A stretch of 64,000 nucleotides of DNA, from positions 2,430 to 66,429 of the IMG/VR virus record IMGVR_UViG_3300036781_000806; one strand, written 5' to 3'. Shown one piece after another: positions 16,007-60,090 of this stretch. The position numbers were made by a program, and so were the translations under genes. This DNA is from a virus. Each line of letters starts with the position of its first letter. Position 1 is the first letter of the stretch. Under the pieces are notes generated by a model. That model was given only the letters and a program-made list of their open reading frames with translations. It searched no databases and was not told where the DNA came from.

Positions 16007-19000
16007 CTACACCAACAGCAACGGCTGATTCAGCGTTGCGGAGTTCTGGACGCGCCCAATCGAATACTGATTGGCTTGGCTGGTTTGCTGCTGCACGAAG
16101 TCAGGCGTCACCACTTGACCGGCCATGAAAGCGCCCGCCCCTTGGCCGTCGATGTGAAGGCTGATGCTGGTAGGGGTTGGTAACTGCGTGCTGGGCTGGC
16201 CTCCGTATGTCGGCAAGTTGGAAGCGTAGGTGTACGCTTGGCCGAACATGTAAGAGGCTTGCTGTTGAAGCTGTCCGCCCGACTCCACCAATCCGCCCGC
16301 ATGAGGCATAGTCGAGCTAAGTGGCACTTTCTGCCCGGTGCCCGATGCGTAGACCATCAAACCGTTCCGGATCTCAGGGTCTATCACGGCCAACGAGACT
16401 TTGCCGCCGTATTTCTGTTGCGCGACCTGGACGACCTTCTGGGCAAACTGAGTGTCAATCGTGACGTTGTACCGCTGCTTGACGAGCCGCTTCGCTTCGT
16501 TGATGGGCGATTCCACACCGGCCAGTTTTTCGCCGATACCGGCAAGCGTGCCAGCAGCAGCGCCGATAGCAGCGCCGATTGGTCCACCAAATTTCATGCC
16601 GAGTGCCGCACCGCCGAGGCCAGATTCAAAGATCCCCAGACCGGTGCCACGGCTGTTGCCAAGCAGACCAGCTTCAGCCAGTGATGAACCACCCGCCACT
16701 AAAGCAGTGCCCGCGAGTCCATCGACGCCGGTGATGCGGCCACTGCCGGAAACCTTCGCGCCACCGACGCCTGTGAAATCACCAGCGTGCGTGAACCCAC
16801 CCCAGTTCAGGCCTTTGAAGTTTGAGAGGTTGAAGCCCTTGCCGCCGAGACCCCTGAGGATTCCACCGAAGGCACCAGAACTCGGTAGGGACATACCTGA
16901 GGGGATACCGGCTGATTCAGTCGCGAAACCGCCGCCGCTGCCACCCGTAGGTTCTACGGCTGATGGGAAGAACCCGCCACCACCCGATGCTGGATGGAAT
17001 GGACTGGAGATCCAGCCACCGCCACCAGAAGACGAGACACCGGGAGTGGTCCCGGTACCCACGACTTGGACGAACAGCGGCTTGCTAGCCACAGAGCCGT
17101 CATTCTTACCGAACACCACAGGCTGCAAGAAGCTCGCAGTCACGCTGGCCAAGCCTGATTCGATCGGCTTCAAAGCCGCGTCGCGGACGGTCGTGGTCAA
17201 CTGCTTATTGAAGGCTTTCGGATTCGTGAAGAGCGTGTGATACAGGCCCTCGGCGGTCTTCTTGATTTCGTCAAGCTGGCGCTTCTGTTCGTTGGCAAAC
17301 TCGACGGCTTGCTGGTTTTCAAGCTCGTACACTTCCTTGGCGTTTTTGAGCTTCAAGTCCTTGATGGTGTTTTCGAGCTGGCCATCGTTGAGGTGCTTCT
17401 CTCGCGCCAACTGTAGGTCGTAAGCCAGTTCTTCGTTAGCGAACTTCTTCTTGATTTCGAGTTGCTCTAGGGAGTTCCGGAGCCGCGCTTGCGGCGTGTC
17501 CGCGCCGATGCCTGCCAGCTTGGATTGGTCGAGTTCTTGGGTCTGGCGCAATGACATCTCGGCGCGATCCGCCGCGATGCTGGCTGTCCTAATCCCCTCG
17601 GCCACTTTAAGAAGCTCCCTTACCCGCTCCTCATTAATCTTGAGGCCGCTTTTGATGTTCGAAGCGTTGGGATCTTCTTCGCCCTTGCCATGATTGAAGG
17701 CGAGCTTGTCGAACTCTTCCTGATACTTCTTCTGCTTCGCCGCAACTTCCTGCTGCAACGCGGCGGGTGCTGCCCCCAGCAGAGCCGTAAGGTTGTCACC
17801 CTTGGCCTTGGCGAGTTCATCAAACAGGCGTGTGCTCTCGGGCAACTGGCTGTCTTTCTTGTTAAGACCGGTCTGGACGCTGCCGATCAGTTCCAGGATG
17901 CGCTTGTGCTCAGTTTCGGCTTCTGTCAGCGCCTTGATCTGATGTTCAAGGTCCTGGATGCCCTTGAGGTCACGGGCGAACTCGGCGCGATCCGCGATGG
18001 CGACGATGCCGTTCTTCTTGAGGGCGTCGGCGTCCTCTCGCAGATCCTTGAGCTTCTCCTTGAGCTTGTCGATGGGATCGAGATAGCGTTGCTCGATGGA
18101 AGCGGTGCCTTGGCGGAGGCCAGCTTGAACCGCAAGTTGCGCGTCCGCATCGGCAGCGAAGTTCGGTGGCTTGGGTCGTTGGTTCAACTGGGCAAGCCCC
18201 TCCACGGAATCCATCATGCTGTTGAAGTCCAGGAAGCCGGAAGCCACCGGCCCACCCAGTGCAACTGCTGCCCCCTTCGCACCATTGGCTAGAAAGGACT
18301 TCAGCCAATCTGGTGCCTTGGCAGTGATGTTGATAAGCCCTTCGATGGGAGTAGCGATCTGCCGTTTGAGAGCTTCCCACTCTAGCCCGACCTGCTTGAG
18401 ATGCGTAGCTGCTTCTTCGGCTTGGTGGAGCGGGTCCTCTAGACCAAAGCCCATCGCTTCCACGGCATGCTTTAGATCGCCATACTTCTCAACGAGCACC
18501 TGAACGTCTTTTGCACCTTTCTTGCCGAGGATTTCGTTGGCAAGGGCAATCTGTTCGGTCTTGTTGGGAATTTGGCTGAGCTTCTCCAGAGTCTCCTCGA
18601 TCAACTGCCCGCCTTCTTTCTGTTCACCCGAAAGATCAACCGTAGAGATCTTCAAGCGAGCAAGTGCAGATTCCATGGTGCGGGCCTTCTGCCCGCCCTG
18701 ATCGAGAGACACGGCCATCGTTGCGCCAGCGCGGGCGAGTCCGTCGATCTCGACTCCGACCAACTTGCCCATAGCCTGGAGCTTGTCGAGGTGACCAACA
18801 GAGATGCCTGTCTGGGCCGACAAGATCTTGAGATGCTCTGCGTCTTCCGCGAAGCCTTTGGCGATACTGAATAGGGCGGTGCCCAAGGCAGTAGCGGCGA
18901 TGACGGTTCCGGCAAACACGCTGCCCACCGGTCCGATCTTTTCGAGCAAGCCTGTGATCGCGCCCTGTGCCGCCTCGACCGGCGACTGCACGAACTGCTC

Positions 19001-19393
19001 GATGCCCCGACCAAAACTCTTGAGACCGTTTTCGTCCCCACCCTTCTCGGCAGCGATGAGCTTCTGATAGGCCGCAGTCACGCGGTTAACGGCTTGCTCG
19101 TCCTGCTGATATTTCTTGATGAGCCGGTCTCGGTCTGCGATGAGCTTATCGACGCCGGATCGACCAGCAAGTTCTGCTTGGCGTTCGAGTGACTTTAGAA
19201 ACCGCTCCTGGGACTGGGTGGCCTTGTCGCTGAACTTGATGAGGTCATTCGAGACCTTGGCAAAAGCGGCGCTCAGCTTCTCGTTGTGGCCAGTCAGCTT
19301 GCTTTCGGAGTTGGCAATCCCATCGTTCAGGGTCTGCAACGCTTTGAGCGTTGACCGGGTATCGATTTCATAAACCGCTGTCTCAAGTCCCAT
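16007..19393 (-). CDS. Tape measure protein, left copy (1128 aa from MGLET)
   Basis: Long helical Ala/Gly/Lys-rich protein between chaperones and Dit; start matched to the paralog. Confidence 0.85.
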   Translation of the reverse strand: MGLETAVYEIDTRSTLKALQTLNDGIANSESKLTGHNEKLSAAFAKVSNDLIKFSDKATQSQERFLKSLERQAELAGRSGVDKLIADRDRLIKKYQQDEQAVNRVTAAYQKLIAAEKGGDENGLKSFGRGIEQFVQSPVEAAQGAITGLLEKIGPVGSVFAGTVIAATALGTALFSIAKGFAEDAEHLKILSAQTGISVGHLDKLQAMGKLVGVEIDGLARAGATMAVSLDQGGQKARTMESALARLKISTVDLSGEQKEGGQLIEETLEKLSQIPNKTEQIALANEILGKKGAKDVQVLVEKYGDLKHAVEAMGFGLEDPLHQAEEAATHLKQVGLEWEALKRQIATPIEGLINITAKAPDWLKSFLANGAKGAAVALGGPVASGFLDFNSMMDSVEGLAQLNQRPKPPNFAADADAQLAVQAGLRQGTASIEQRYLDPIDKLKEKLKDLREDADALKKNGIVAIADRAEFARDLKGIQDLEHQIKALTEAETEHKRILELIGSVQTGLNKKDSQLPESTRLFDELAKAKGDNLTALLGAAPAALQQEVAAKQKKYQEEFDKLAFNHGKGEEDPNASNIKSGLKINEERVRELLKVAEGIRTASIAADRAEMSLRQTQELDQSKLAGIGADTPQARLRNSLEQLEIKKKFANEELAYDLQLAREKHLNDGQLENTIKDLKLKNAKEVYELENQQAVEFANEQKRQLDEIKKTAEGLYHTLFTNPKAFNKQLTTTVRDAALKPIESGLASVTASFLQPVVFGKNDGSVASKPLFVQVVGTGTTPGVSSSGGGGWISSPFHPASGGGGFFPSAVEPTGGSGGGFATESAGIPSGMSLPSSGAFGGILRGLGGKGFNLSNFKGLNWGGFTHAGDFTGVGGAKVSGSGRITGVDGLAGTALVAGGSSLAEAGLLGNSRGTGLGIFESGLGGAALGMKFGGPIGAAIGAAAGTLAGIGEKLAGVESPINEAKRLVKQRYNVTIDTQFAQKVVQVAQQKYGGKVSLAVIDPEIRNGLMVYASGTGQKVPLSSTMPHAGGLVESGGQLQQQASYMFGQAYTYASNLPTYGGQPSTQLPTPTSISLHIDGQGAGAFMAGQVVTPDFVQQQTSQANQYSIGRVQNSATLNQPLLLV

Positions 19394-19466
19394 GCCCAGG
19401 TATTTATGGGGTGGGATTGTGGCCAAACGTTCACCCGTGCTGGACTGGAATTTTGGGAGGATTCAC

Positions 19467-29467: not shown

Positions 29468-31450
29468 CTAGCGATTCATCCACGCTGGCGCGACTTTGCG
29501 CGGCGCTCGAATAACCTGCAAGGGTCTTGGGATTTCAGGCTCTTGCTCAACAACGCAACGCGGCGCGAGTGCCTCTTCCAGGGCCTTCCAGTGGTGCTCT
29601 TTGAACCTGTCGGCGCAGAGAGCGTACATGGCGCGGTTGTAGACCGCTAGGTCAAGAGGCTCGTTGCGTTCAAAGCGCTTCTGCCAGACCGCGAGACCCT
29701 TCTCGGTAATGACGCGCCGCTCACTGCATAGCCCCAGAAAGTACTGCATATCGTAACGGGGAAAGTGAATACGGTTCGGAGTCGGCTCGCTGGCTGACTT
29801 GGAGTATCTGAGGTTGTCGAACAGTTCCGCCTTGATGCACTGCGTGCCGACGTGGACGATTCGGACGCCCTGCTTTCGCCGTGCCGCCGATTCGTTGGTC
29901 ACCGAATGAATGATCTTGTTCTCATCGTTGCCACCCTTCACGGGCACGACCGTTTTCTGTGAATGGATCGAAACGCCCCCGGCGATGTTGTAGGCCGGTT
30001 GTGGATGCGTCAGGGCAAAGTTGTAGACCGGCTGAGGATTCATGCCAGTGTCGATCCCGATGGCCCAAATCGAGAGTGTGTTTCCGGACTCATGCCGGTA
30101 TTCGCGCTGTAGGACTCGCCTGTCGAGTTCGGCCCAGACTTCGGGAGAGTTCACCGGGAGAGGCGTGCGGTGGGCGTCTGTCGAGAACGCTTGGATGATC
30201 TGATAGTCAACGCTCCACGACTCCCGGTCACGTCCCCAAGCTCTAACCTCGACTTCTAGGCGTGGTGGTGATTCCTGAACGTCCACAGCGGCGGTCAGGA
30301 ATAAGCCGCGCTGTGGCACGACGGCGTTCTCACCGAACGGATAGCTTTCGCGGCGCTTGTAGAGAAGCTCCTCATCGGGGGTCACACCTAACTCGATCCA
30401 AGGCTCAGCGAGAACCGTGTTGATGAAGGTCTTGTGCTTGGTGCGATCCTTCCTGACCCTGAGATAGTGAGCGACGATTTCCTGGATGCTCTTCTTGGGT
30501 GAGTAGAGGTGTGAGATGTGGAATCCGGCTTTACCGGCGAAGGGTCTACGGGCCTTCCAAACGCCTTTCTCGCAAGCGTTGATCCGTTGCAAGTCGGTCC
30601 ATCTGGCGTGGCAGTGGATGCACTCATATCGGGCTGACTTGGCCCGCTCCAGGTTCGTGAGCTTCACGCCGTGCTGATCGAACTTGTCGAACTTCACGCC
30701 GGTCCAAAAGTCGAGCACCTGGGACTCCCCGCATGTGTGGCACGGAACCCAGTACTGGCGCATGTCGGTCTGGTTGTATTGGCGGAGGATCTTGGAGCTG
30801 TGTTCGAGCGTGGGCGAGCAGGCCATGATGACCTTGTGCCGAGGCTTAAACTGCATGACCCGGTTCATGGCGAGTTCGATAGGATCGCCCTCTCGGTCGA
30901 CGTCGGCGGCATATCGATCGATCTCGTCCATCAAGAGGTACTGAATCGTTTTCGAGGCGAGGTTGCCGCCGACCTGGGTGCCGGTCAGCGATAGCGAGCC
31001 GTTCGGGAAGGTCTTGCTGAGGATTGTGTTGGTGGCTTTCTTGGCTCCAGGACCGTGGGAGGTCTCGAGGACCTTGCCAGTCAGAATCGGGCTGTCGCGC
31101 AGCATCGGAGCCAGCCGCTTCGTCGAGAACTCGGCCCCGTCGCGATCCTTCTCAAAAAGCATTAGGACCGGACCCGGAACGCACGCGATGATATAGGCAA
31201 GCGCGGCCTGCATCGTGAGGGTCTTGACCATTTGGGTTGAGGACATCAGCACGATTTCTTGCGTGTTCTCGTCCGTGAAAGCGTTGAAGACTTCCCGTTG
31301 GAAGTTGTAGAGGCGAATCGGGCCGGTTCGGGGCGCGTATTCGGAGGACAGGTAGAAGTGCTTCTCCGCCCACTGATCTAATGGCAGGCGCTCAGGTGGG
31401 CTGAGCAACCGCAGCCACTCTCTGAACTGCTTCTTTAGATCGTTAGACAT
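29468..31450 (-). CDS. terL: Terminase large subunit (lambda gpA family), left copy
   Basis: Q..KT Walker A variant, LLMDEID Walker B, EGDP, SPT, VPC..CG, DVQ, RNEPLD. Confidence 0.95.
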   Translation of the reverse strand: MSNDLKKQFREWLRLLSPPERLPLDQWAEKHFYLSSEYAPRTGPIRLYNFQREVFNAFTDENTQEIVLMSSTQMVKTLTMQAALAYIIACVPGPVLMLFEKDRDGAEFSTKRLAPMLRDSPILTGKVLETSHGPGAKKATNTILSKTFPNGSLSLTGTQVGGNLASKTIQYLLMDEIDRYAADVDREGDPIELAMNRVMQFKPRHKVIMACSPTLEHSSKILRQYNQTDMRQYWVPCHTCGESQVLDFWTGVKFDKFDQHGVKLTNLERAKSARYECIHCHARWTDLQRINACEKGVWKARRPFAGKAGFHISHLYSPKKSIQEIVAHYLRVRKDRTKHKTFINTVLAEPWIELGVTPDEELLYKRRESYPFGENAVVPQRGLFLTAAVDVQESPPRLEVEVRAWGRDRESWSVDYQIIQAFSTDAHRTPLPVNSPEVWAELDRRVLQREYRHESGNTLSIWAIGIDTGMNPQPVYNFALTHPQPAYNIAGGVSIHSQKTVVPVKGGNDENKIIHSVTNESAARRKQGVRIVHVGTQCIKAELFDNLRYSKSASEPTPNRIHFPRYDMQYFLGLCSERRVITEKGLAVWQKRFERNEPLDLAVYNRAMYALCADRFKEHHWKALEEALAPRCVVEQEPEIPRPLQVIRAPRKVAPAWMNR

Positions 31451-31919
31451 GGAACTCTTGAAGCTCCGCTAGTGCCCTCCTGATCTCGTCGTCGAGCAGA
31501 CGACGCACGTTGCCCTGGTCGGTCTCGGCTGCCAGCCGTTCGGAGAGTTCGGTCGGAATCCTGAGCAGGATGTCGCGGAACCGGATCAACATTCCGGACA
31601 CCCACAGGTTGATTTCGTTGACGTCGGCGAGCTGGCCCAGCTTGGTCCGGTGCTCCAACTCACGGAGATCGGCTAGCGCCCGTTCTTTTCTGGTCTGAGC
31701 AGCATGGAAGGATTCCAGGGCTTCGCCTTCGAGCGCCGGGTTTGATTCGCGCTTCTTCCGACGCGCTTCTTCACCGGCCAGCCACGCTTGACCCTCGTCG
31801 ATGATTTGTTGGGGTGTCTTACTGGCCTTGAGCTTCTTCCGGACTAGGGTCGTCGAACAGTGGGCTTGTAGGGCAATGTCGAGCGCCGACATGCCGTCTA
31901 CGCAAATCTTTGGTTTCAC
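31443..31919 (-). CDS. terS: Terminase small subunit (Nu1-like), left copy
   Basis: N-terminal HTH-like segment; A..RKE.A...LRELE....G.L; directly upstream of terL. Confidence 0.85.
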   Translation of the reverse strand: MKPKICVDGMSALDIALQAHCSTTLVRKKLKASKTPQQIIDEGQAWLAGEEARRKKRESNPALEGEALESFHAAQTRKERALADLRELEHRTKLGQLADVNEINLWVSGMLIRFRDILLRIPTELSERLAAETDQGNVRRLLDDEIRRALAELQEFHV

Positions 31920-31966
31920 CCAACTATGTAGGCAAATACCTTTCGAATACCCGAGGCTCTATAGAA

Positions 31967-32016
31967 TGCGCCGTAGTGCCAACCGCTTGCGGGGGTGGGT
32001 AGGGAAGGACCCTGGA
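31967..32016 (-). other. Putative cos site of left module (cosQ-like GGGTCCT at 32006-32012)
   Basis: 50-nt block aligning without gaps to 37013-37062, just upstream of terS. Confidence 0.7.
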
Positions 32017-32052
32017 ATAGCGGAACGGGTGCACGGATGTTAGGCTGTTCGC

Positions 32053-33066
32053 ATGGCAAAAGCGCTCCGTACGGCCGGGTCTGTCCTGCTTAGCGTATTC
32101 ATCGGAATCATTATCGCCAAGGCGCAGACTGACCCGACCCTTCCTTACGGCTGGATCTTACGAGATCCACGAGTAGTTCCTGTTCTAATCGCCGCGTTGA
32201 TCGTATGCGTTTTAGTCTTCGCGGGGCAGTTTGCGCCGGTTGCTACTGTTTACTGGAAGCTATTTCGCAGCGTAGTTCCACTTCAAGCGGCGGATGGCAC
32301 GCCACTTCCGCTAATGGGATTGACGATCAAATCAGCACGCTGGTATTGCACGGTTCGCGGGACCGAGCAAGACGTGACGAGAGCACTCCAAGGAAAGGTG
32401 GCTGGCGGCTATCTTAAAGTTCATGCTCATGACAATGTTCTCGGCGACGTTTGTAAACTGCATGGCGGCACCGGCGACCCCAAAACACTAGAAGTCGAGT
32501 TCGTCTATCATTCACGGGCTACTGCGACCCACGATGAATGGCTGACTATTCCCTGCCAAGAAGACCGCACACGGGAACTCCTACGAGAAATAGAGCGACG
32601 CTCAAGCGATGTCGAAACCCATCGAATTGAGTTACTGAATTGCAGGCACACTGCACAAGAACAGGCGGCCACGGCCCAGAAAATGTCTCGAGACCTTCAG
32701 GCAGAACGCGACTCGAACGAGAAGCTTTCAGCCAAGGTCCAGGACCTGCAGGCCCGCATTCCGGTTGTCGAAGACCCGGCCAAGGATATCGATCCGAACA
32801 CCTACCAACTTCTTCGAAATGCGTTTCCGCAGGATTGGAGGCAGCGGCTCGCTCTAAAGTGGATCTGGCAGCAATCTAGCTGCCCATTGGAGCAATTTCG
32901 CCTTACGTGCGAGAATAGCGGTTTTGCCGACTTCGAAGAGAAGATGGTTAAGCCAATACTGGGTAATCGCGTCCTTGTCGATTCTGATGACAAGGCTGCG
33001 TGGATAAAAACCCAAGAGGCAAGGAAGGTCCTCACGCAGTTGTTCAGAGAGTTCCCGCTATGTTGA
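32053..33066 (+). CDS. Moron: membrane protein with SUEL/DUF3395-like domain and coiled coil
   Basis: Two TM helices; I.SA.W...DVT..L...V...L.V....N.LGD....PK.L.V.F. Confidence 0.6.
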   Translation: MAKALRTAGSVLLSVFIGIIIAKAQTDPTLPYGWILRDPRVVPVLIAALIVCVLVFAGQFAPVATVYWKLFRSVVPLQAADGTPLPLMGLTIKSARWYCTVRGTEQDVTRALQGKVAGGYLKVHAHDNVLGDVCKLHGGTGDPKTLEVEFVYHSRATATHDEWLTIPCQEDRTRELLREIERRSSDVETHRIELLNCRHTAQEQAATAQKMSRDLQAERDSNEKLSAKVQDLQARIPVVEDPAKDIDPNTYQLLRNAFPQDWRQRLALKWIWQQSSCPLEQFRLTCENSGFADFEEKMVKPILGNRVLVDSDDKAAWIKTQEARKVLTQLFREFPLC

Positions 33067-33123
33067 CGATATGCAGATTGCGCTGAAGCCCGAACAGTTC
33101 CTCGCCATCAAAATAGGTGACCT

Positions 33124-35832
33124 TCAGTACGTCTTCATGACCAGCACACGAGCGTTGCCCGCTGACGCGCCTGTGTCCAGGAACAAGACATAGCTGCCGC
33201 TGCTGGGTGTGGTGGTTCCGGCGTCGTGCAACTTGCCACCTGACGTGCTCGATAAGATCCCGAAGTCGCCCGCCGTCCACGCGCCATCCGTTGCCCAACC
33301 TTGTACCTCAGTATCCCTTGAACCGGCAATGTAGAGGTTGCCTGATGTCGAGGTCTTGCCCGACAACGCCCAACCGATAAACGTCGTATCGCTGGTGCCA
33401 TTGTTGGCGACGTTACCGGTACCATCGAGCTTTACTCCAAGGCCTTGCGTGATCACGTTCGTTGACGCCGGAAAGTCCAACAACCGGCCCATAGCTGGAA
33501 CCGCCGTTCCCGCAGTTGAGGTATTGTTCCATTTCACCTGTCCGTCGATGTTACGGATCGTGAGGTTTTTTGACGGGTCGGTGGTGCCGTAGGTCAGGAT
33601 GCCGGTCGGGATCTGCACGTCCGAGATCACGCCCTGCATGGTGGAGGCGTCGAGGGCTTTCAAGCTCGAAGAAACCATCGTGATCACGCAGTCATGAATC
33701 CTGACGCCCGTGACGGCTTGGGTCGCATAGATCCCGATTGAATCAGACGTGCAATGCAGCCCGCTCACTTCATCGAGGTTTGCGTTGATCGCTAGACACC
33801 GGCTCGCTACCGTCTGCGATCCGTTGACGGCGTCGCCGTGCGAGGCCACATTGGTGGCGTTCAGCTTGATGGCCCCAGTTCCCTGGTTCCAGTTCGAGAT
33901 GCTGTTGTGATTCGATTCGCAAAAGCTTTGGCTGAGTGAGATTGCAGTTTGATTCTTTCCGGAGTTGGCATTCAAGACGCTGACGAAGTTGTTGCTTATC
34001 GCGCACGTTGCACCTGTGCCGCCCGAGGTGCCGGACAGCCAAATGCAGCTGGATGTATTGCCGCACGCATCCTCTAAGAGGTTACCTTCCACCACGGCAG
34101 GAGCCTGAAACACGATGCCACCCACAAGGCTTGCGCCGGAGTTCACGCGTTGACGGCACGTGTTCTTGGTGATGGTTCCATATCGATTCAGGGGCGTGCC
34201 GTTCGGGACCTCGGGGTTTACGCCGTCAGAATTGATCGAGTCGAGGATGATGCACGCCGTGTTGTAGTTCACAATGACGTTGCTGTCATAGACGGCTCCG
34301 CTCGAATCTTCCTGCGGGACGGCCTTGTGGCCATGGATGCCGTATCCGAAGACACCCTCGATGTAATTGCTTTCAACTCGGTTGCCTGCGCCCTGGTCGT
34401 AGATGCCGTGCTGGGTGGTTGATGAGCCGACGTTGATGATGCGGCAGCCTCGGACCACGTTGCTAGAGCTGTTCAGTACGATTGCCGTGGCCTTGAAGGA
34501 ATCATGGATGTAGCAGTTCTCGATGATCGCGCCTTGGTAGCCCTGGCTGTTCGAAGTGACGGTGTCGGAGCTGGAATGAGCGTTCGCGAACGTCGCCGTG
34601 AAGGTGGCGGCGGTCTTCGCGGTCACCGTGACAGCCTCGGACGTTCCCCCAATCAAAAGCCGCTGGCCGACATAGATGAACCCCATGTTGCCCGGTGTGA
34701 CGGTTTGGGAGCCAGTTGAAACGGACCCGCCCACGGTTGTGTTGACCATCGTCTGTGTGTACGGCTGAAAAGTCGAGATCCCGGAACCGCCCGACGTGAG
34801 GTTGTTGCCATAGATGCCCGAGATCTCAATGTTGTAGAGGTGCGGGCTGAAAGCGCCGTTGTTGATCGCTATCCCGGTCCAGTCAAACGATCCGGACATG
34901 CCGGAACCGTTCAGGATGCTCAGATCGTGAATACACTGGTTCGTGCCGTTGACCTGGAACACAGTGGTTGCGCCCGTTAGGGTGACGTTAGCGGCGTACT
35001 GAAGAATCGTGACTCCGGGTCCGTCGCCGTAGACGCACAGACCGTTCGATGAAGAAGTCAGATTCAGTATCGTTCCGGTGGTGCCGGTGATCGAATAGGT
35101 TCCGGCTGGGATGTACAGGGCTTTCTTGCCTGATGCGATAACGGCTGACAGAGCATTCGTAAGCGCTGTGGAAGCATCCGATACGCCTGTGCTGTCGGCT
35201 CCGAAATCGGTTTTGGCGTTGACGGTGTCACGCGCCCGCGCGTCGAGTGTCGTGGCAGCGGCTCCTGTGCCGGGATTCGTGAAGGCCACGTCGCCTGCTA
35301 CAGGTTGCGCCGCCGAGACCGTGCCATCTGTCGCAATTTGCATCAAAAACTGGTGTGTGACCTGAGAGAAGGACTTGACGCCGCCCAACGAAGATGGTCC
35401 TGGATTGGGAAGACGGCCAGCCGGAAGCGTTCCGTTCGAAATGTTCGATGCGTTTGTGGTGTCGGTCGAGCACGAACTGGCAGCGTTAGAAAGATCACCG
35501 CAAGCTGGCTGCTGCTTCGTGATTGATCCGTCTGCGTTGATGGCAGTCAGAAAGCTATGAAGCGTCGCCGGACTCGTCATGATTCCACCAAGCGTTGAGA
35601 CCGTGGGCGCGGGCATTTGGCCGGAGGGCAGTTTGCCGGAACCGTCGAGCGAGGCGTAGCCGTTCGATTGCCCTTTCTGAGCAATGCTTTGCTTGGCAGA
35701 CAGATCCGTGGTCAAGTTGGTGACGGCGGATTCAGGAACGTTGGAAACGGTGGCACGGTTGCCGTTGATGGTGGTCTGGCTGAACACAGCGCTCGTGATG
35801 AGCAGCCCCAGGGTGAGAAGTTTCTTAGTCAA
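33124..35832 (-). CDS. Right-handed beta-helix (pectate lyase 3-like) spike/depolymerase with signal-peptide-like N-terminus
   Basis: VNAK.DFGA...G..D...A, LYIPAGTY, PbH1-like repeats; KG..NGYASLD.SGK.P fibre motif. Confidence 0.75.
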   Translation of the reverse strand: MTKKLLTLGLLITSAVFSQTTINGNRATVSNVPESAVTNLTTDLSAKQSIAQKGQSNGYASLDGSGKLPSGQMPAPTVSTLGGIMTSPATLHSFLTAINADGSITKQQPACGDLSNAASSCSTDTTNASNISNGTLPAGRLPNPGPSSLGGVKSFSQVTHQFLMQIATDGTVSAAQPVAGDVAFTNPGTGAAATTLDARARDTVNAKTDFGADSTGVSDASTALTNALSAVIASGKKALYIPAGTYSITGTTGTILNLTSSSNGLCVYGDGPGVTILQYAANVTLTGATTVFQVNGTNQCIHDLSILNGSGMSGSFDWTGIAINNGAFSPHLYNIEISGIYGNNLTSGGSGISTFQPYTQTMVNTTVGGSVSTGSQTVTPGNMGFIYVGQRLLIGGTSEAVTVTAKTAATFTATFANAHSSSDTVTSNSQGYQGAIIENCYIHDSFKATAIVLNSSSNVVRGCRIINVGSSTTQHGIYDQGAGNRVESNYIEGVFGYGIHGHKAVPQEDSSGAVYDSNVIVNYNTACIILDSINSDGVNPEVPNGTPLNRYGTITKNTCRQRVNSGASLVGGIVFQAPAVVEGNLLEDACGNTSSCIWLSGTSGGTGATCAISNNFVSVLNANSGKNQTAISLSQSFCESNHNSISNWNQGTGAIKLNATNVASHGDAVNGSQTVASRCLAINANLDEVSGLHCTSDSIGIYATQAVTGVRIHDCVITMVSSSLKALDASTMQGVISDVQIPTGILTYGTTDPSKNLTIRNIDGQVKWNNTSTAGTAVPAMGRLLDFPASTNVITQGLGVKLDGTGNVANNGTSDTTFIGWALSGKTSTSGNLYIAGSRDTEVQGWATDGAWTAGDFGILSSTSGGKLHDAGTTTPSSGSYVLFLDTGASAGNARVLVMKTY

Positions 35833-36379
35833 GGTCTTGTACTCCGTATGTGTCCGCGATCAGCGACAGGCCGTCAGGAGAGACGAATGTCTGAACGTTC
35901 CGTTTACCGGCCAGCGTTCCAAGCTCCATACCGCCCGAGACGTTATCTGGCCATGTAACCGACCGTGGGCCATCGGGATCGACCGTAATGATAACGGTAA
36001 CCCTTTGGCCAACCGTCATGTTCACGAAGGACGGGTTTGTGATGTCGCCGTTCGTGGTGAATAGTTGAACGTCGCCCCGCTGACAGTCGAAGACCGGTGA
36101 AGATGGATCGGGTGTGTTGGGAACCGCGTAAGCGCCGCCACTGCCTGAGAACGGTACGCCGTTGTTCAGGATCTGGCCAATGAAATTCAGGTCGCCCAGA
36201 ACGTCAAGGTCCGCTCCAAAAGTATGGTTGCCGGTCCACTCGTAGTCGCCATCGAGTTGGTCTGGGCCGAGGGTGCCTTGAACGGCGTGCGGAGCGTTCC
36301 AGTCGGAAGGCCGGATTACAGAGCTGTCTGCGCGGTCAGGCTTGTGACTGACCTTTTGGTGAATGATCGTGAGAGCCAC
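35825..36379 (-). CDS. Fibre-associated structural protein
   Basis: H.KVS..PD..D....PSDWNA.H N-terminal motif and G.RSVTWP C-terminal domain seen in phage fibre proteins. Confidence 0.6.
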   Translation of the reverse strand: MALTIIHQKVSHKPDRADSSVIRPSDWNAPHAVQGTLGPDQLDGDYEWTGNHTFGADLDVLGDLNFIGQILNNGVPFSGSGGAYAVPNTPDPSSPVFDCQRGDVQLFTTNGDITNPSFVNMTVGQRVTVIITVDPDGPRSVTWPDNVSGGMELGTLAGKRNVQTFVSPDGLSLIADTYGVQDLD

Positions 36380-36406
36380 ATGAAGTATGTAGCTCTAACT
36401 TGCTCG

Positions 36407-36652
36407 TCAGCAGGCCGAACGCTTGCGCTTGTACCGCCGAGGTGCCGAGGATGTGAACGCTTGCCGCACCACCTCCTTCGCAGCTTCTTGTGCCACCGTT
36501 TTGACAAATTCCTCAAAGAACAGACTGAGCAGGCTGGGAGGCTGGGCGTTTTGAACTGGAAGAGCACGTGGAACCACGATGACCCGAGGCTGCTGCATTG
36601 GCCCCGGCTTCATAACAGGCATACCGTTGTGTGAACGAGTTGAAACGTACAT
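36407..36652 (-). CDS. Hypothetical protein
   Basis: GGAGG SD. Confidence 0.5.
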   Translation of the reverse strand: MYVSTRSHNGMPVMKPGPMQQPRVIVVPRALPVQNAQPPSLLSLFFEEFVKTVAQEAAKEVVRQAFTSSAPRRYKRKRSAC

Positions 36653-36683
36653 CTTGCTAAACCCTCCTTGCTCGAAATCTGGC

Positions 36684-36932
36684 CTATGGCAAAACGTCGA
36701 AGGCGCGATCTCCGACCTTTATCCGTGCGACCTTTGCGCATCGCTTGCAGCCGACCCGCTTACCGGGCGCGGCCTTCACTGGCTGGCTCGAAGGTTGCGT
36801 AGAGCACCCGCACAACGTCGAACCAACTGGACCATCCTCGGCTTTGTTGGACTCCGCAAAATGGCTGAGCGTACCGGATGCGGTTTTAACGACCCAAAGC
36901 GGCTGTCTGTGATATAGCGGCACTCGCCCCAT
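36684..36932 (-). CDS. Small putative Zn-binding protein
   Basis: H...LCG...CKRC. Confidence 0.5.
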   Translation of the reverse strand: MGRVPLYHRQPLWVVKTASGTLSHFAESNKAEDGPVGSTLCGCSTQPSSQPVKAAPGKRVGCKRCAKVARIKVGDRAFDVLP

Positions 36933-37012
36933 TTTAGACCGTCGTCCCGTTCATGCAAAGGGGTATTTGGAAATCCGAAGAGCGAGAGCAGCTAAGTATT
37001 CCAGCAACGATC

Positions 37013-37062
37013 TCCAGGGTCCTCTCCGCAAACCCCGCGCTCGCGGTTGGTCTTACGGCGCA
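37013..37062 (+). other. Putative cos site of right module (cosQ-like GGGTCCT at 37017-37023)
   Basis: Homologous to 31967-32016 in inverted orientation; ends 16 nt upstream of terS. Confidence 0.7.
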
Positions 37063-37078
37063 CAAACAGCCTCCTTAC

Positions 37079-37549
37079 ATGGTCGAAACCTCACAACAAC
37101 TAACCGTTTCTGAACTCGCGATGCAGGCCGACATCAATGTCGGCACCGCCTCCAGGAAATTGAAGCAGGGTAAGTCGCCAGAGCAGATCATCGAAGAAGC
37201 CCAACAGTGGCGGCACCAGATGAGCCAGCGGAGCCAGAAAAGGGCGTCTGAAAAGGCCGCTCCTGACGGTGACATCTCTTACATCGAGGCTCAGCGCCTG
37301 AAGGAGATCGCCCTCAAGAATCTGCGCGAGTTGGAATATCAGGTCAAATCCGGTGACTTGGTTCCTGTGGCTGAGGTCAACGCTTGGGTTGCCGGAATGA
37401 TTATCGAAGCTCGTAACATCCTGCTCCGCATAGCTCCGGAGCTTCGAGACCGGCTGTGCATCGAGCAAGACCCGGCAGAGATCGACCGGCTTATCAGTCA
37501 AGAGGTTGACCGGGTCCTGCAGAGGCTGGCTGAATTCAAACCGAATTAA
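37079..37549 (+). CDS. terS: Terminase small subunit (Nu1-like), right copy
   Basis: Paralog of 31443-31919. Confidence 0.85.
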   Translation: MVETSQQLTVSELAMQADINVGTASRKLKQGKSPEQIIEEAQQWRHQMSQRSQKRASEKAAPDGDISYIEAQRLKEIALKNLRELEYQVKSGDLVPVAEVNAWVAGMIIEARNILLRIAPELRDRLCIEQDPAEIDRLISQEVDRVLQRLAEFKPN

Positions 37550-37577
37550 GAATGCGATACTAGACACTGGAAATCGC

Positions 37578-38369
37578 ATGCTCGTGTTCTATGGAGACGA
37601 TAGCGGGTCAAGTCCAAGGGACGGCGTTTGCCTCGTTGGAGGTTATCTTGCCACGCAATCGACGTGGTTCTACGATATCGAGATCCCGTGGAGACGTGCC
37701 TTGGCCGAGGATCCGCAAATCCACTATTTCAAAGCTTTTGAATGTGAAAAACTCGTCGGGGAGTTTAAAGGATGGGATCGCCTAATGGCAGACGAGAAGT
37801 TAGAACGTCTCGTTGGTGTTGTGGCATCCCAGGCCGTGAAGCTGCGGGAGTTCAGCTCCTCCATCCGTTGGAGTGAGTTTGAAAACAGCGTCACCGGTGC
37901 TGTCCGCTCGGTCTACAATCATCCTTATTACTTCTGCGTGCACGGCGTCGTGAGCTTGATTGCTCGTGAATATCTACTTGAGATTGCAAAGGTGTCTGGC
38001 GTTCCAACAAGGGCCACCCGAGCGGTCGCTTATGCCTTTGATCTGCAGGCTCAGCAAGCGGAAATGTCCAAACAGTATCACCACGTTGGAGAGACCGTGG
38101 ATTCGTATATTTCCTCCACAATGGGGTCGATATCGTTTTATGACGACTTGGAAGTGGTGCCACTCCAAGTGAGCGACCTAATCGCGTGGCACCTGCGTCG
38201 AGATATTTTGAAGCCTAAGCGCGATCTCGGAGTGACGCGACCTGCACTTGTGACCTTGAGGAAACATTATGCATTTGAGACCAAAGAGGCCCGATGGAAT
38301 CCTAACAAACTCGAGGAGTTTTGCGATAAGGTAGACGCGGGATTAAAGGTGCCTCATTTATGGGACTAA
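37578..38369 (+). CDS. DUF3800-like (RNase H fold) moron between terS and terL
   Basis: FYGDDSG...VGGY, PLQ.SD.IAW motifs; lower GC; absent from the left module. Confidence 0.75.
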   Translation: MLVFYGDDSGSSPRDGVCLVGGYLATQSTWFYDIEIPWRRALAEDPQIHYFKAFECEKLVGEFKGWDRLMADEKLERLVGVVASQAVKLREFSSSIRWSEFENSVTGAVRSVYNHPYYFCVHGVVSLIAREYLLEIAKVSGVPTRATRAVAYAFDLQAQQAEMSKQYHHVGETVDSYISSTMGSISFYDDLEVVPLQVSDLIAWHLRRDILKPKRDLGVTRPALVTLRKHYAFETKEARWNPNKLEEFCDKVDAGLKVPHLWD

Positions 38370-38422: not shown

Positions 38423-40405
38423 ATGCTTTCAATTGATACCCTGTCCGGCCAGTGGTCTAGCCTTTGGACACCGCCCGCACGTCTACCGCTCAGCCAGTGG
38501 GTTGAGCAGCACTTCCATCTCACGACCGATTTTGCGACCCGCAACGGGTTGCTCCGTCTGTACGGCTGGCAGCGTGAAATCTTCGACGCCTTCACGGACC
38601 CACGCACGACCGAGATTACTTGCTGCGTGGCGATTCAGCTTGTCAAGACGCTTTTCATTCAAGCTGCCCTGGCGTACGCTATCGCGGAAGACCCTGGCCC
38701 GGTGCTGCTCGTGGAGCCAAAAGAGCAGGACGCCATGGCGTTCTCGAAGAAGCGCCTAAAACCCATGATCGAGGCCAGCCCGTTGCTGCGCCAGATCATC
38801 CGGAAGGACGTTAAGCGTGACAACACAATCCTCTCGATGGACTTTCCAGGGGGGAACTTTACGGCTGTCTCAGCCCTGGTGCCCGGTAACTTAGCTGGCC
38901 GCACGATCCGCTATCTGTTATGCGATGAGACCGACAAATACGAGGTCTCAGCCGGTAACGCCGGTGATCCAATCTCGCTTGCGAAAGGCCGCACTACCAA
39001 CTTCGGGTCGCTCCGCAAGATCGTGCAGGTCTGCTCGCCCACCAACGAGGGTGAATCCAGGATCGCTCTTGCGTATGATGGCTCCGACCAACGCAAGCCG
39101 TGGGTGCCATGCCCACATTGCGGCCAGCACCAGATTCTAAAGTTTGATTCCGTGAAGTGGGGCGAGAAATTGCCTCCTGCACTCCGTGGTTCCGGCGATG
39201 CGGTGCCGGGTCCGACCTACTATCAATGCCTCCATTGCGAAGGCTTCTGGAACGATCTTGAACGCCGGAAAGCTTGTGAGCTTGTGGAATGGAGAGCCGA
39301 CAAGCCCTTCAAAGGTCACGCTGGCTTCTGGATCTCCCACCTGTATAGCCCGTGGAACTCGCTGGAAGATCTGGCCTCAGACTTCTTAATCGCCAAGCGG
39401 AACAAGGAGACTTTAAAAGTCTTCATCACGGAACGTCTCGCTGAACTTTGGAAAGAGGACGGCTCCGTTCCGGACGATCAACGCCTTTACGCGCGTCGGG
39501 AAGAGTACGGGTGGGGCGAGGACGCCGTGGTGCCAGAACGCGGCTTGTTCCTGGTGGCCTCCGTGGACGTGCAAGAAAACCCGCCGCGTCTCGAAGCCTC
39601 CGTGATGGCTTACGGTCGTGAGAAAGAATGCTGGCTGATCGACTACCAAGTCATACAGGCCCACGCCGACGATAGGGCGCGGACGCTGTTGCCGGTGACG
39701 GCTCCGGAACTCTGGAAAGAGCTTGACCGGCGTGTCCTTCAACGTGACTATCAGCACGCCTCCGGTGCCCTGATGCCGGTTTGGTTGATGGCCATCGACA
39801 CCGGCATGCGGCCACAGCCTGTTTACAGCTTTGCTTTGCGTCATCCTCAACCGCTCTATAACGCGGCAGGCGGTCTATCCGTGCCTAGTCACCGCTCCGT
39901 CGTCCCCGTCAAAGGTAATGACGACCCGCTCAAAGTCATTTCGTTGATCTCGAAGGAGGACGCCGCCAGAAAGCGGCAAGGCGTCCGGATTGTCAGCATC
40001 GGTACGCCGCGCTGTAAGACCGAGATTTTCGACAACCTCCGATACGTTAAGCCCGATCCGGACGGAAAGCCCGTCGCCAACTGTTGGCACTTCCCAAAGG
40101 TGGAGCGGACCTATTTTGAGGGTCTGTGCTCTGAGCGTCGTGTCGTCCGGAACAACTCCGAGGTTGTTTGGCAGAAGATCAATCCACGCAACGAACCGTT
40201 GGATTTGGCTGTGTACTGCAGAGCAGCGGCCAGCATGGTGGGAATCGACCGCTTCAAAGAGCACCAATGGGCGGAGCTTGAACGACGCTTGAAGCCGATC
40301 GTTCAGCCGGATCAGGACGATTCGGAGCCAGACGCCGCGCCAGCCCTAAAGGTACCGCCGCCGCCCCAACGCCCGCGCCGCCTAGCTGGTTTCTCGCTCT
40401 CCTAA
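38423..40405 (+). CDS. terL: Terminase large subunit (lambda gpA family), right copy
   Basis: QLVKT, LLCDETD, GDP, SPT, VPCPHCG, DVQ, RNEPLD. Confidence 0.95.
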   Translation: MLSIDTLSGQWSSLWTPPARLPLSQWVEQHFHLTTDFATRNGLLRLYGWQREIFDAFTDPRTTEITCCVAIQLVKTLFIQAALAYAIAEDPGPVLLVEPKEQDAMAFSKKRLKPMIEASPLLRQIIRKDVKRDNTILSMDFPGGNFTAVSALVPGNLAGRTIRYLLCDETDKYEVSAGNAGDPISLAKGRTTNFGSLRKIVQVCSPTNEGESRIALAYDGSDQRKPWVPCPHCGQHQILKFDSVKWGEKLPPALRGSGDAVPGPTYYQCLHCEGFWNDLERRKACELVEWRADKPFKGHAGFWISHLYSPWNSLEDLASDFLIAKRNKETLKVFITERLAELWKEDGSVPDDQRLYARREEYGWGEDAVVPERGLFLVASVDVQENPPRLEASVMAYGREKECWLIDYQVIQAHADDRARTLLPVTAPELWKELDRRVLQRDYQHASGALMPVWLMAIDTGMRPQPVYSFALRHPQPLYNAAGGLSVPSHRSVVPVKGNDDPLKVISLISKEDAARKRQGVRIVSIGTPRCKTEIFDNLRYVKPDPDGKPVANCWHFPKVERTYFEGLCSERRVVRNNSEVVWQKINPRNEPLDLAVYCRAAASMVGIDRFKEHQWAELERRLKPIVQPDQDDSEPDAAPALKVPPPPQRPRRLAGFSLS

Positions 40406-46858: not shown

Positions 46859-46897
46859 CCTGTTGCGGTGTGCGGGCCTGCTCCATACATATGGCCG

Positions 46898-47377
46898 ATG
46901 CAAGAGCAGTGGAAAGCGATACCGGGTTTTGAAGGCGTTTATGAGGCAAGCGACCAGGGGCGAATACGGGGCCTGTCGCGCGTGGTCAGGAGGGGGCGCG
47001 GTTTCACCCGCTTGCCTGAACTGATCATCAAACCGGCAGGTTCAAGGTACCTGCACGTTTCCCTGGGGCGAGATGGAGTTCGCACCAATGCTTTCGTTCA
47101 TCGGCTCGTCATGTCGGCCTTCTATGGTCCGAGCGACTTGACTGTGAATCACCGCAACCGGATCAAAACGGACAACAGGCTCGCCAACCTTGAATACATG
47201 ACGCAGACCGAGAACACGAGGGACGCATCGTTTCTGACACAGCAACAAGCTCAGGAAATTCGAGAGCTTTATGCTTCCGGTGCAGGTTCCCAGCGGGCAT
47301 TAGCAGTGCAATACGGAGTCTGCCATGCCACCATCTGGCTCATCGTGCACGGCCTCCGCTGGCAAGATGCCGCGTGA
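46898..47377 (+). CDS. NUMOD4-HNH homing endonuclease
   Basis: EQWKAIPGFEG.YEASD.GRIR, VHRLV..AF, VNH.N..K.DNRL.NLE, C-terminal HTH. Confidence 0.9.
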   Translation: MQEQWKAIPGFEGVYEASDQGRIRGLSRVVRRGRGFTRLPELIIKPAGSRYLHVSLGRDGVRTNAFVHRLVMSAFYGPSDLTVNHRNRIKTDNRLANLEYMTQTENTRDASFLTQQQAQEIRELYASGAGSQRALAVQYGVCHATIWLIVHGLRWQDAA

Positions 47378-48455: not shown

Positions 48456-48857
48456 ATGGCAACCACCATCAATCACACAGTCGTCCGCACCTACAAGAAT
48501 CAAGGCTCCACTGCCCGCACGCTTTCCGAGACAGTGAGCGGCAACACGGAGCGCAACCTAGCGGTGCAGGTCGCAGGCACCACCACCAACCATCACGTTG
48601 TAATCACTTGGGTACAGGCCGACATTCAGAGCCTCAGCATCACCAGCGACCAAGCCATCACGATCTATACGAACGCGGCCTCGGGTAGCAGCCCACAGGA
48701 CACGATTGCGATTGCAGCCGGTCAGGTGTTGATCTGGACGCTGGCAACCGACTTAGTCGCACGTTGCCCATTCAGCGACGACGTGACCAGCATCTACATC
48801 ACCAATTCCGGTTCGACCGCTGCCAACATCTTTATTGACAGCGTGCTCTCGATCTAA
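48456..48857 (+). CDS. Tail-associated structural protein, right copy
   Basis: Paralog of 21774-22175. Confidence 0.7.
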   Translation: MATTINHTVVRTYKNQGSTARTLSETVSGNTERNLAVQVAGTTTNHHVVITWVQADIQSLSITSDQAITIYTNAASGSSPQDTIAIAAGQVLIWTLATDLVARCPFSDDVTSIYITNSGSTAANIFIDSVLSI

Positions 48858-58825: not shown

Positions 58826-59165
58826 CTTAGTGCTGAGCGCAGGTGTATAGGCTTAGTGCTCAGTTAGTGCTGAGGGGGGTCCCCCCGAGCCGTCGCTCGA
58901 CGGCACCCCTCTATGAGTCCGGGAGACTCAGATGTTGCTTGTAAAGCGGTTCGACGGGCCTCAGAGTGCGATTGGCGCGGATTCCGTAAAGTCGCTTTTT
59001 TGCGCCCTCCGGAAGATCGAGTAGCTTAGAAGGCTGATGCTCTATCCACCTGAGCTACGCGCCCGCAAATGACGTCGAACGCCCGTCGTTACGTGTTTCC
59101 ATGATAGCAGCGGTGTCTTCCACAACCGTCGCTTCCCGGGCTCTTCGTGCTGAGTGAGTGCTGAA
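58826..59165 (+). repeat. Direct repeats (T)TAGTGCTGAG-like, putative integrase arm sites
   Basis: Copies at 58826-37, 58852-63, 58864-74, 59143-54 and 59155-65. Confidence 0.6.
59023..59064 (-). pseudogene. 5' half of tRNA-Arg(UCU), truncated just after the anticodon loop (att-like)
   Basis: GGGCGCGTAGCTCAGGTGGATAGAGCATCAGCCTTCTAAGCT, then non-tRNA sequence; no T-arm follows. Confidence 0.85.
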
Positions 59166-59490: not shown

Positions 59491-60090
59491 ATGAAGCCAA
59501 CTGCTCGCAGTTGCGCCTGCGCGGTCGTCTTGCTGTTGATCAATCTGCTCCAGGCAACCGCCTCGGGCCAGGACGCCGCGCAAGCCAAACTGAATATCGT
59601 CATTGTTGAAGGCGAAGGCGCGATTAATAACGTGAAGGATCGCGTGAATCGCGAGCCTATCGTTCAAATCGAAGACGAAAATCACAAACCGGTGGCCGGA
59701 GCGGCCGTGATTTTCTTCCTGCCGAATTCCGGCGCCAGCGGAGTCTTCTCGAACGGCACCAAGACCCTCACCCTGACTTCCGATGCCCAGGGACGCGCCG
59801 CCGCCCTCGGCATCAAGAGGAATAACGTTTCCGGGCAAATGCAGATTCGCGTAACCGCCTCCGCCTCCGGAGCCACTGCCAGCGCCGTGATCACGCAGAC
59901 CAACGTCGCGGCCACTTCTTCAGCCGGCCTCAGCACTACGGCCAAGGTCCTGATCATTGCCGGACTCGCGGGAGGCGCGATCGCCGGCGGCATCATCGCC
60001 ACGCGCGGCGGATCGAGCCCCGGTTCCACTCCGCCCCCGCCTTCGATCACCATTACCGCGGGAACTCCCAGTGTAGGAGCGCCGAAATGA
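59491..60090 (+). CDS. Host secreted/membrane protein with Ig-like domain
   Basis: Signal peptide, V...DE...PV.GA.V.F...SD.QGRA, C-terminal TM; GGGAGG SD. Confidence 0.75.
   Translation: MKPTARSCACAVVLLLINLLQATASGQDAAQAKLNIVIVEGEGAINNVKDRVNREPIVQIEDENHKPVAGAAVIFFLPNSGASGVFSNGTKTLTLTSDAQGRAAALGIKRNNVSGQMQIRVTASASGATASAVITQTNVAATSSAGLSTTAKVLIIAGLAGGAIAGGIIATRGGSSPGSTPPPPSITITAGTPSVGAPK

Follow-up and report, generated by a model that had tools for sequence, protein, structure and literature searches.

Two predicted lambda-type cos sites, one for each of two prophages joined head to head in an acidobacterial virus record

The whole stretch of DNA analysed here (the window, 64,000 nt) carries two inverted blocks of 50 nt, each of which is probably the cosQ-to-cosN segment of a cos site that belongs to a separate lambda-type temperate phage, rather than one half of a single paired device. 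The record combines parts of two prophages that meet at a repeat, be it as an assembly chimera or as a recombination isomer, and most likely the two sites do not work as a pair at all and stand head to head only because prophage arms have been joined through that repeat. The feature is of an ordinary kind; the host phylum is new for it.

Two matching blocks upstream of two terminase modules

The blocks and the elements recognised within them are the following.

31967..32016, minus strand: left block of 50 nt, covering cosQ to cosN in the left phage's predicted cos site
32006..32012, minus strand: cosQ-like heptamer GGGTCCT of the left phage, from the motif search of the window and the comparison with lambda
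31971..31984, minus strand: predicted cohesive-end core GGTTGGCACTACGG of the left phage; contigs of relatives begin at GGT
37013..37062, plus strand: right block of 50 nt, covering cosQ to cosN in the right phage's predicted cos site
37017..37023, plus strand: cosQ-like heptamer GGGTCCT of the right phage, from the motif search of the window
37045..37058, plus strand: predicted cohesive-end core GGTTGGTCTTACGG of the right phage, from the comparison of cos layouts

A preliminary description of this DNA had reported gap-free homologous blocks of 50 nt upstream of each small terminase gene, and the exact strings were recovered as an ungapped inverted pair identical at 36 of 50 positions (72%), with no alignment of the flanking sequence on either side of the two blocks. 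When the two 400-nt regions upstream of the terS genes were compared by their best ungapped 50-nt window, 500 mononucleotide shuffles yielded a mean of 26.3 matches and a maximum of 30, and none of the 500 reached 36; a window of 36 matches is far above chance. Taken by itself, the heptamer is no commoner in the window than chance predicts (6 found vs 7.6 expected). The composite pattern GGGTCCT-N18-24-GGKTGG matches in the window at these two blocks only (2 vs 0.05 expected), and two matches occurred in 0 of 100 shuffles.

Each block lies immediately upstream of a terminase module.

31443..31919, minus strand: terS-L, Nu1 family (phrog_57, profile match 3.1e-17)
29468..31450, minus strand: terL-L with GpA ATPase and nuclease domains (Pfam), 28% identical to lambda gpA
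37079..37549, plus strand: terS-R, Nu1 family (phrog_57, profile match 4e-17)
38423..40405, plus strand: terL-R with GpA ATPase and nuclease domains (Pfam)

The left small terminase gene starts with GTG at 31919, 47 nt from its block, and the right one with ATG at 37079, 16 nt from its block. An in-frame ATG at 36953 upstream of the latter would make the right block coding; homology to other TerS proteins begins near 37079. In each TerL the GpA_ATPase and GpA_nuclease matches stand above the Pfam cut-offs (E 1e-62 to 1e-69; family size about 640-660 aa). Lambda Nu1 falls in phrog_57 (1.3e-76), as do both TerS proteins, which gave no significant BLASTP match to lambda Nu1 and matched no Pfam family. 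On both sides the genes run from terS and terL through an Ad1/gpW-like adaptor, a lambda-family portal, an S49 protease, a cement protein and an E-type capsid to an FII-like protein, and the head module of each side is complete and in lambda order. Between the left and the right phage, TerL is 50% and TerS 42% identical, and the DNA of the arms 71-77%.

In the lambda record, GGGTCCT is followed by 23 nt ending in CG, the 12-nt cohesive end and a further CG; in both blocks it is followed by 22 nt ending in CG, 13 nt and a further CG. The left core starts 21 nt past the heptamer and has CG directly after it, and the right core departs from the left at three positions, 7-9. The identification of GGGTCCT with lambda cosQ, as first proposed, therefore stands as to position, 23 nt before lambda's left cohesive end, and that these particular letters are cosQ is something we presume, in agreement with that place. 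To call the two cores cosN variants, as was done at the same time, is a reasonable reading of a cosQ-spacer-core layout that stands upstream of Nu1/GpA-type genes with cores differing in this way. Cleavage at the blocks, the exact nick positions and a 5' overhang of 12-13 nt are all predicted by analogy with lambda. A 7-bp cosQ is described as highly conserved in the part of PMC4669245 used here, a part in which the letters of the heptamer do not appear.

A lambda-type cosN has two nick sites 12 nt apart between conserved CG flanks, with partial two-fold symmetry; inspection of the predicted cosN revealed no clear symmetry beyond GCG...CGC, with the flanking CG...CG present 13 nt apart. A search for TerS-binding repeats of the cosB kind around three cos regions (the two blocks and that of the third prophage described below) gave nothing convincing, a result with which a simple single-site cosB like that of N15, or a cosB lying inside terS, may be compatible.

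The same layout in related phages

The cos layout is found again in a third prophage of this host, whose TerL is 53% identical, and there it fits exactly into the 100-nt gap between an upstream ORF and terS; across the three prophages of this one host, TerS is 42-63% and TerL 50-53% identical. Among 47 distant IMG/VR loci with enough sequence upstream of a GpA terL, GGGTCCT occurs on the coding strand 500-1500 nt upstream of terL in 12, against 1.4 expected, and all 12 heptamers are followed 19-23 nt later by a core led by GG(G/T); from the other 35 of the 47 the heptamer is absent in the expected zone. In a set of Bryobacteraceae prophages (29 loci examined, in 27 of which the whole 1500 nt before a GpA terL was available), the exact heptamer was present in 1 of 27, and GGGACCT with a similar core in one more. 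The layout recurs, then, in a share of the IMG/VR loci, and the GGGTCCT heptamer is not general among GpA-terminase prophages.

Contig ends bear on the cut itself. Seven of 20 related contigs that start no more than 1500 nt upstream of terL begin with GGT, the predicted left nick, and one such start maps 19 nt past the cosQ of a longer relative. These starts are as expected for physical genome ends and support a left nick before GGT. The long IMG/VR relatives that were checked for a right genome end, and with it the size of the overhang, were fragments, only about 55% complete. Searching with a profile of the aligned cos regions returned its training members, one near-duplicate and one weak match, with nothing else new, and a scan with a cos-specific pattern added no further IMG/VR record.

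The two phages are most likely prophages in the chromosome of a soil bacterium of the Bryobacteraceae (Acidobacteriota). By inference from lambda, after excision and concatemer formation the Nu1-like TerS and GpA-like TerL of each would nick that phage's own cos, at or beside the GGTTGG... core. Packaging would then proceed toward the phage's own terS and terL and end when that phage's next cos is reached, the final cut there requiring the cosQ heptamer.

The junction between the two phages

Between the two sites, and at the far end of the right prophage, the following features matter for how the arms came to be joined.

33124..35832, minus strand: 902-aa ORF whose N terminus resembles a signal peptide and which weakly matches a tail spike
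33835..34439, no strand: two-copy repeat core inside the 902-aa gene, the point at which an independent assembly has four contig ends
35825..36932, minus strand: short ORFs of 184, 81 and 82 aa that lie upstream of the 902-aa gene and read away from the right cos site
59023..59064, minus strand: att repeat, the first 42 nt of tRNA-Arg(TCT), marking the far end of the right prophage

The repeat core is the sole link between the left and right phage arms. The 902-aa ORF has a paralogue elsewhere in the host genome, adjoining which is a paralogue of the 184-aa gene (56-61% identical), and the two copies of the long gene are 94-100% identical per 100 nt in their centre and 19-77% in their flanks. 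In an independent MAG that is 99.97-100% identical to the window, contigs C49 and C51 end at 33834 and contigs C11 and C48 start at 34440. tRNA-Arg(TCG) comes after the left integrase, and C48 repeats the first 42 nt of this tRNA; tRNA-Arg(TCT) comes after the second integrase, on C51, and the window repeats its first 42 nt at the far end of the right prophage. The left phage is accordingly paired by its att repeats with another contig and not with the right phage. Given that the join passes through a two-copy repeat and that the att repeats pair the arms with different contigs, the 5-kb distance given in the preliminary description is uncertain. The opposite orientation of the sites stands, as does their separation by 4996 nt within the record.

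The Logan contigs of sequencing run X1 include no listed piece across 33351-34987 and are uninformative on the arrangement, and the Logan depths (about 14.7 and 14.9 for the window arms, 11.9-13.3 for pieces of the C51 type) are not usable as evidence. Read-pair support may lie behind the bridging of the repeat by the record's assembler. The right phage itself looks rearranged: its gpJ-like gene, on C51, is broken, and for these reasons the right cos site may be a relic. Further, no single inversion was found that converts the internal order of the right prophage (C51 with C11) to that of the left.

Assembly chimera or real inversion

The arms are joined via a repeat of at least 605 nt in paralogous 902-aa genes, and an assembly chimera and a real inversion are about equally likely. 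Homologous recombination rearranges resident prophages, and that both cos sites are real and the junction genuine, the outcome of inversion between the 902-aa paralogues of two oppositely oriented prophages, falls only slightly short of being as credible as its converse. The path from C49 through the core to C11 is exactly the one-inversion product of the two gene copies, given the contig orientations; the near-identical centre between divergent flanks is as it would be after a recent exchange; and the record's assembler did bridge the repeat. Against this, neither the independent assembly nor the listed Logan contigs of run X1 pass unbroken through the repeat, both att pairs are direct and complete only in the alternative arrangement, and a search of viral_contigs and metagenome_contigs with words specific to the window or to C48 found no other assembly spanning the repeat (one window-specific word in the viral_contigs scan lay at the repeat edge, not inside). 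Such an inversion would have swapped the arms and mismatched the att pairs, leaving the prophages locked in.

A stronger version of the same idea is unlikely, namely that the junction is real and forms a composite of about 61 kb with mismatched att ends, without clean excision, in which two intact, outward-facing terminase and cos modules could cut in situ. If it were true, on induction each terminase could drive DNA out by way of its own late genes and on toward the chromosome beside them, in effect a two-directional, cos-driven analogue of lateral transduction.

Readings in which the blocks are not separate cos sites

Also unlikely is the view that the blocks are a conserved regulatory element of the late or the terminase operon, such as a promoter, an operator or a terS leader, with cleavage elsewhere or headful packaging. 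The closeness of the blocks to the terS starts (16-47 nt), the possibility of reading the right block as part of an ORF extension from 36953, the failure to find a cosB and the absence of the heptamer from most family relatives would all suit it. Yet the blocks have no promoter-like or terminator-like match and no unusual, stable or shared fold (z-scores +0.81, +0.95 and -0.32), the heptamer and its spacing agree with lambda cos, and contigs of relatives start exactly at the predicted nick. Terminases of the GpA/Nu1 kind are known from cos phages. No Rfam family matched within 31000-38000, and no tRNA was found in the window.

That the inverted sites cooperate, with two terminases packaging in opposite directions to give imperfectly matched cohesive ends, is very improbable: intact terS and terL genes do accompany each of the two closely spaced inverted sites, and lambda with mismatched cohesive ends can be made and is viable, but mismatched ends arise, as far as the relevant part of PMC4669245 describes them, only from cos sites that point the same way, with one lying downstream of its partner, whereas with the diverging directions found here neither motor ever reaches the opposite site, each site is that of a different phage with its own att repeats, and their adjacency rests on a path through a two-copy repeat. 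In lambda-type packaging, as that same part of the source has it, the direction is from cosQ-cosN toward terS, so that packaging from inverted sites diverges outward and no molecule is bounded by both. The initial proposal of imperfectly matched ends from this pair consequently fails, given two phages as different as their terminases indicate and packaging that runs outward.

Implications

The analysis offers testable predictions of cos sites in prophages of the Acidobacteriota, with the cuts placed to a base or two; few phages of this soil phylum have been studied at all. The retention of the cosQ heptamer and its spacing between lambda of E. coli and acidobacterial prophages whose TerL is 28% identical might, on a more speculative reading, point to an ancient direct contact between GpA and cosQ. 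In practice, the lambda cosQ heptamer with its spacing can locate cos in some, not all, distant phages with GpA terminases. More broadly, an IMG/VR 'provirus' rated 94% complete and yet composite calls for caution against its use as a single genome.

Comparison with known systems

Lambda cos is the closest counterpart. In both, a near-constant distance separates GGGTCCT from the cut site downstream of it, CG dinucleotides stand on both sides of the core, and the genes that come directly after are terS of the Nu1 family, terL of the GpA family and then a head module in lambda order. The spacer is 21-22 nt in the blocks and 23 in lambda, and the gap between the CG flanks 13 nt rather than 12. 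The core sequences are unrelated (GGTTGG... vs GGGCGG...), the gap to terS is 16 nt on the right and 47 nt on the left compared with about 180 nt in lambda, lambda's cosB with its R-site or IHF site found no counterpart at the blocks, and the host is an acidobacterium instead of E. coli.

Dilysogens of the Feiss type, which give mismatched cohesive ends, similarly place two cos sites that differ in cosN in one chromosome; in the portion of PMC4669245 considered here those sites are direct and packaging runs from the start to the other site, which is impossible with inverted sites. Rearrangement of prophages by homologous recombination likewise involves related prophages with a near-identical segment and swappable flanks, except that here the swap may have taken place in cells or only in the assembler. 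Lambda, 21 and N15, as that portion of PMC4669245 presents them, are related cos phages of separate packaging specificity that share cosQ and a general cosN layout while their TerS proteins have diverged, as in the present prophages, with the difference that here the cores themselves diverge in their middle, at positions 7-9.

Two related phages, each with a cos-like site

The source record (66,429 nt; IMG/VR class provirus, completeness rating 94%; the window spans its positions 2430-66429) carries within the window two lambda-order structural modules, head to head, whose parts (suffix -L, left phage; -R, right phage) are as follows.

First 1458 bases of the record: left integrase
10081-14577 (-): left gpJ-like protein
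16007-19426 (-): left tape measure
29468-31450 (-): terL-L, GpA domains
31443-31919 (-): terS-L
31967-32016 (-): left 50-nt block, cos-L
33124-35832: 902-aa ORF, signal-peptide-like start, core 33835-34439
37013-37062 (+): right 50-nt block, cos-R
37079-37549 (+): terS-R
37506-38369 (+): 287-aa ORF, weak DUF3800 match
38423-40405 (+): terL-R, GpA domains
51207-55094 (+): right tape measure
After terL-L (-): left head genes (Ad1/gpW-like, lambda-family portal, S49 protease, cement protein, E-type capsid protein, FII-like protein)
Left phage (-): fibres and gp32-like SSB
Right phage (+), as far as the tape measure: the same head gene set as left

With identities of 50% between the TerL proteins (314/634), 42% between the TerS proteins and 71-77% between the DNA arms, the phages are related but different. 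The left terminase genes overlap; between terS-R and terL-R sits the 287-aa ORF, and the corresponding place in a third prophage is taken by a 259-aa antisense ORF (L069 7221-8000). NUMOD4/HNH_3 homing-endonuclease-like genes occupy differing sites in the related prophages (window 46868-47377, +; L078 2879-3490; L079 721-1536). Past a partial tRNA, at 60087-64000 (+), GC reaches 64% and large proteins with eight He_PIG Ig-like repeats start; this is probably host DNA taken into the "provirus" record.

Both 50-nt strings of the preliminary description are present exactly. They match gap-free at 36 of 50 positions, and no alignment continues into the flanking sequence. When the two 400-nt stretches upstream were shuffled, the best score was 30 matches, and 0 of 500 shuffles reached 36. 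Each block consists of GGGTCCT, 22 nt ending in CG, 13 nt (GTTGGCACTACGG or GTTGGTCTTACGG) and CG. By itself GGGTCCT is no commoner in the window than chance predicts (6 matches, 7.6 expected); followed 18-24 nt on by GGKTGG, it occurs twice, only at the blocks (0.05 expected). The blocks gave neither an Rfam family nor a tRNA, neither a promoter-like nor a terminator-like match, and their fold is neither unusual nor shared. The sole sigma-70-like match in 31850-37150, by consensus only (TTTGCA-17 nt-TAAAAT, 36931-36959, -), lies directly upstream of an 82-aa ORF, about 60 nt from cosQ-R and directed away from it.

Conservation of the block and the predicted nick

The host has a third prophage, with TerL 53% identical, which is present as IMG/VR record L004 and as MAG locus L069 (100% identical to each other). 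It has GGGTCCT, 22 nt ending in CG, GGTGGGACGATGG and CG, a layout lying precisely within the 100-nt gap between the end of the upstream ORF (6648) and the terS start (6750). For 47 of 61 IMG/VR loci with relatives of the GpA-type TerL, sequence is available from at least part of a zone that begins 500 nt and ends 1500 nt upstream of terL. In 12 of the 47 this zone has GGGTCCT on the coding strand, where the heptamer's density outside the zone of these loci predicts 1.43 (Poisson P ~4e-8, some of the 12 being close relatives: L027/L028, L007/L008, L039/L044). All 12 have, 19-23 nt past the heptamer, a GC-flanked core that opens with GG(G/T); in the zone of the other 35 loci the heptamer is absent. 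Of three matches beyond the zone, those in L013 and L063 fit the layout and that in L059 does not. Within the host family, 51 of 201 sampled genomes have a GpA-like TerL; for the best 29 loci from other genomes, 27 of them with the full 1500 nt upstream, the exact heptamer occurs in only one of the 27 (L095, with a similar core), and L089 has GGGACCT, 22 nt and GGGTGGATATGG upstream of an HTH-type terS. Taken together, the third prophage and these two surveys indicate that conservation of the block extends to the nearest relatives and to a scatter of distant ones but is not general.

Contig starts bear on the position of the nick. The comparison covered 20 loci that open at a contig end upstream of terL and less than 1500 nt from it; seven of these begin with GGT. 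L021 starts 19 nt past the heptamer of its longer relative L022, and L024, L029 and L040 open with sequence similar to the cores of L027, L020 and L039. The GGT starts are the pattern that would be expected of physical left ends of virion DNA, and they place the predicted left nick just before GGT, which in the window blocks would be directly ahead of GGTTGG (31984, 37045), give or take one base. The L034 group starts at GGT, yet has no exact heptamer upstream. Among distant GpA phages, a group (L023, L025, L030-L035, L041) has contigs starting GGTAATG, upstream of which longer relatives have GGTACTCC, not GGGTCCT; GGTACTCC may be a diverged cosQ.

The junction between the two phages

The same DNA is carried by a Bryobacteraceae MAG of about 7 Mb. 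Its contig C49 is 99.98% identical to the window from 33834 down to 21471 and 100% identical from there to the record's first base and past it, and C11 is 99.97-100% identical over 34440-64000. The 605 nt between them are missing from the MAG where four contigs meet (C49 and C51 end at 33834, C11 and C48 start at 34440), and Logan contigs of the sole run holding this stretch break at the same place. The missing segment lies inside the 902-aa ORF, of which the host genome has two paralogous copies (see also L078 1-1141 and L079 2-716); a 184-aa gene precedes both copies. Between copies, identity per 100 nt is ~94-100% over the central ~1.1 kb (~33,800-35,000; the second assembly lacks the 605-nt core) and falls to 19-77% outward, a mosaic suggestive of recent inter-prophage exchange.

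A complete tRNA-Arg(TCG) (L081 4308-4384) comes after the left integrase. Its first 42 nt, as part of an exact repeat of 46 nt, are found again in C48 (L078 6976-7021), some 7 kb into the contig and directly before host-like CYTH and TPR genes. C51 carries primase, helicase, integrase, a complete tRNA-Arg(TCT) (L082 9402-9478) and then biotin-synthesis genes, and the first 42 nt of this tRNA recur at window 59064-59023. The two related prophages are thus associated with tRNA-Arg genes of different anticodon, TCG and TCT; both att duplications comprise exactly the first 42 nt, the 5' part to the anticodon loop, and the integrase reads toward the full tRNA. Judged from contig orientations, both att pairs are direct and prophage-enclosing only with the joins C49-C48 (~44 kb) and C51-C11 (~47 kb). 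The window's own join, C49 to C11, is what an assembler's wrong turn would give, and equally what a single genuine inversion between the gene copies would give; the two explanations are about equally probable. Scans of viral and metagenome contigs with window- or C48-specific words found no other assembly of the junction. That the record is a composite is a second, modest outcome.

Right phage and joint packaging

With three GpA terL genes (C49, C11, C1) and three gpJ-like genes (C49, C1, C51) in the MAG, C51 presumably supplies the distal tail genes of the right phage. Given that its gpJ-like gene is split, with an in-frame TGA, and that the tail-fibre block there has the opposite orientation to the adjoining early, primase-helicase and integrase block (all in C51, L079 7700-12165 and L082 955-9390), the right prophage looks rearranged and is possibly defective. 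No single event was found that derives its order from that of the left phage. Its cos-R may be a relic.

It had been proposed that both sites act in packaging and produce imperfectly matched ends. Packaging from cos-L would run toward lower coordinates and from cos-R toward higher, and this divergence contradicts joint packaging: because packaging of the lambda type starts at cos and heads for terS and terL, the two sites do not work together. Nor do mismatched ends follow from an inverted pair, since these require two sites in direct orientation, as in the PMC4669245 dilysogens. Whether the junction is chimera or inversion, each cos belongs to a different phage.

Comparison with lambda cos

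In the lambda record GGGTCCT stands at 48473-48479; next come a 23-nt spacer whose last two bases are CG, the cohesive end of 12 nt and a further CG, and Nu1 starts at base 191. The heptamer is presumably the one named cosQ, in agreement with this position. Nu1 shares its PHROG with both TerS proteins, both TerL proteins have GpA domains, and TerL-L is 28% identical to lambda gpA. The preliminary description was right on two points: the cos-like sites are real, and so is its reading of the heptamer. According to PMC4669245, which does not spell out the heptamer, conservation is high for the 7-bp cosQ and extends to the CG pairs either side of the nicks, termination requires cosQ and cosN (the nick region), and packaging proceeds from cosQ through cosN to cosB (the TerS-binding region) and onward. 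The window blocks differ in having 22 nt plus 13 nt where lambda has a 23-nt spacer plus a 12-nt cohesive end, and lie far closer to terS than lambda's cos does. No cosB-like repeats were found at the window's cos regions, and this, with the short space before terS, is the main departure from the lambda model. As a modest addition, the cosQ layout of lambda extends to acidobacterial prophages.
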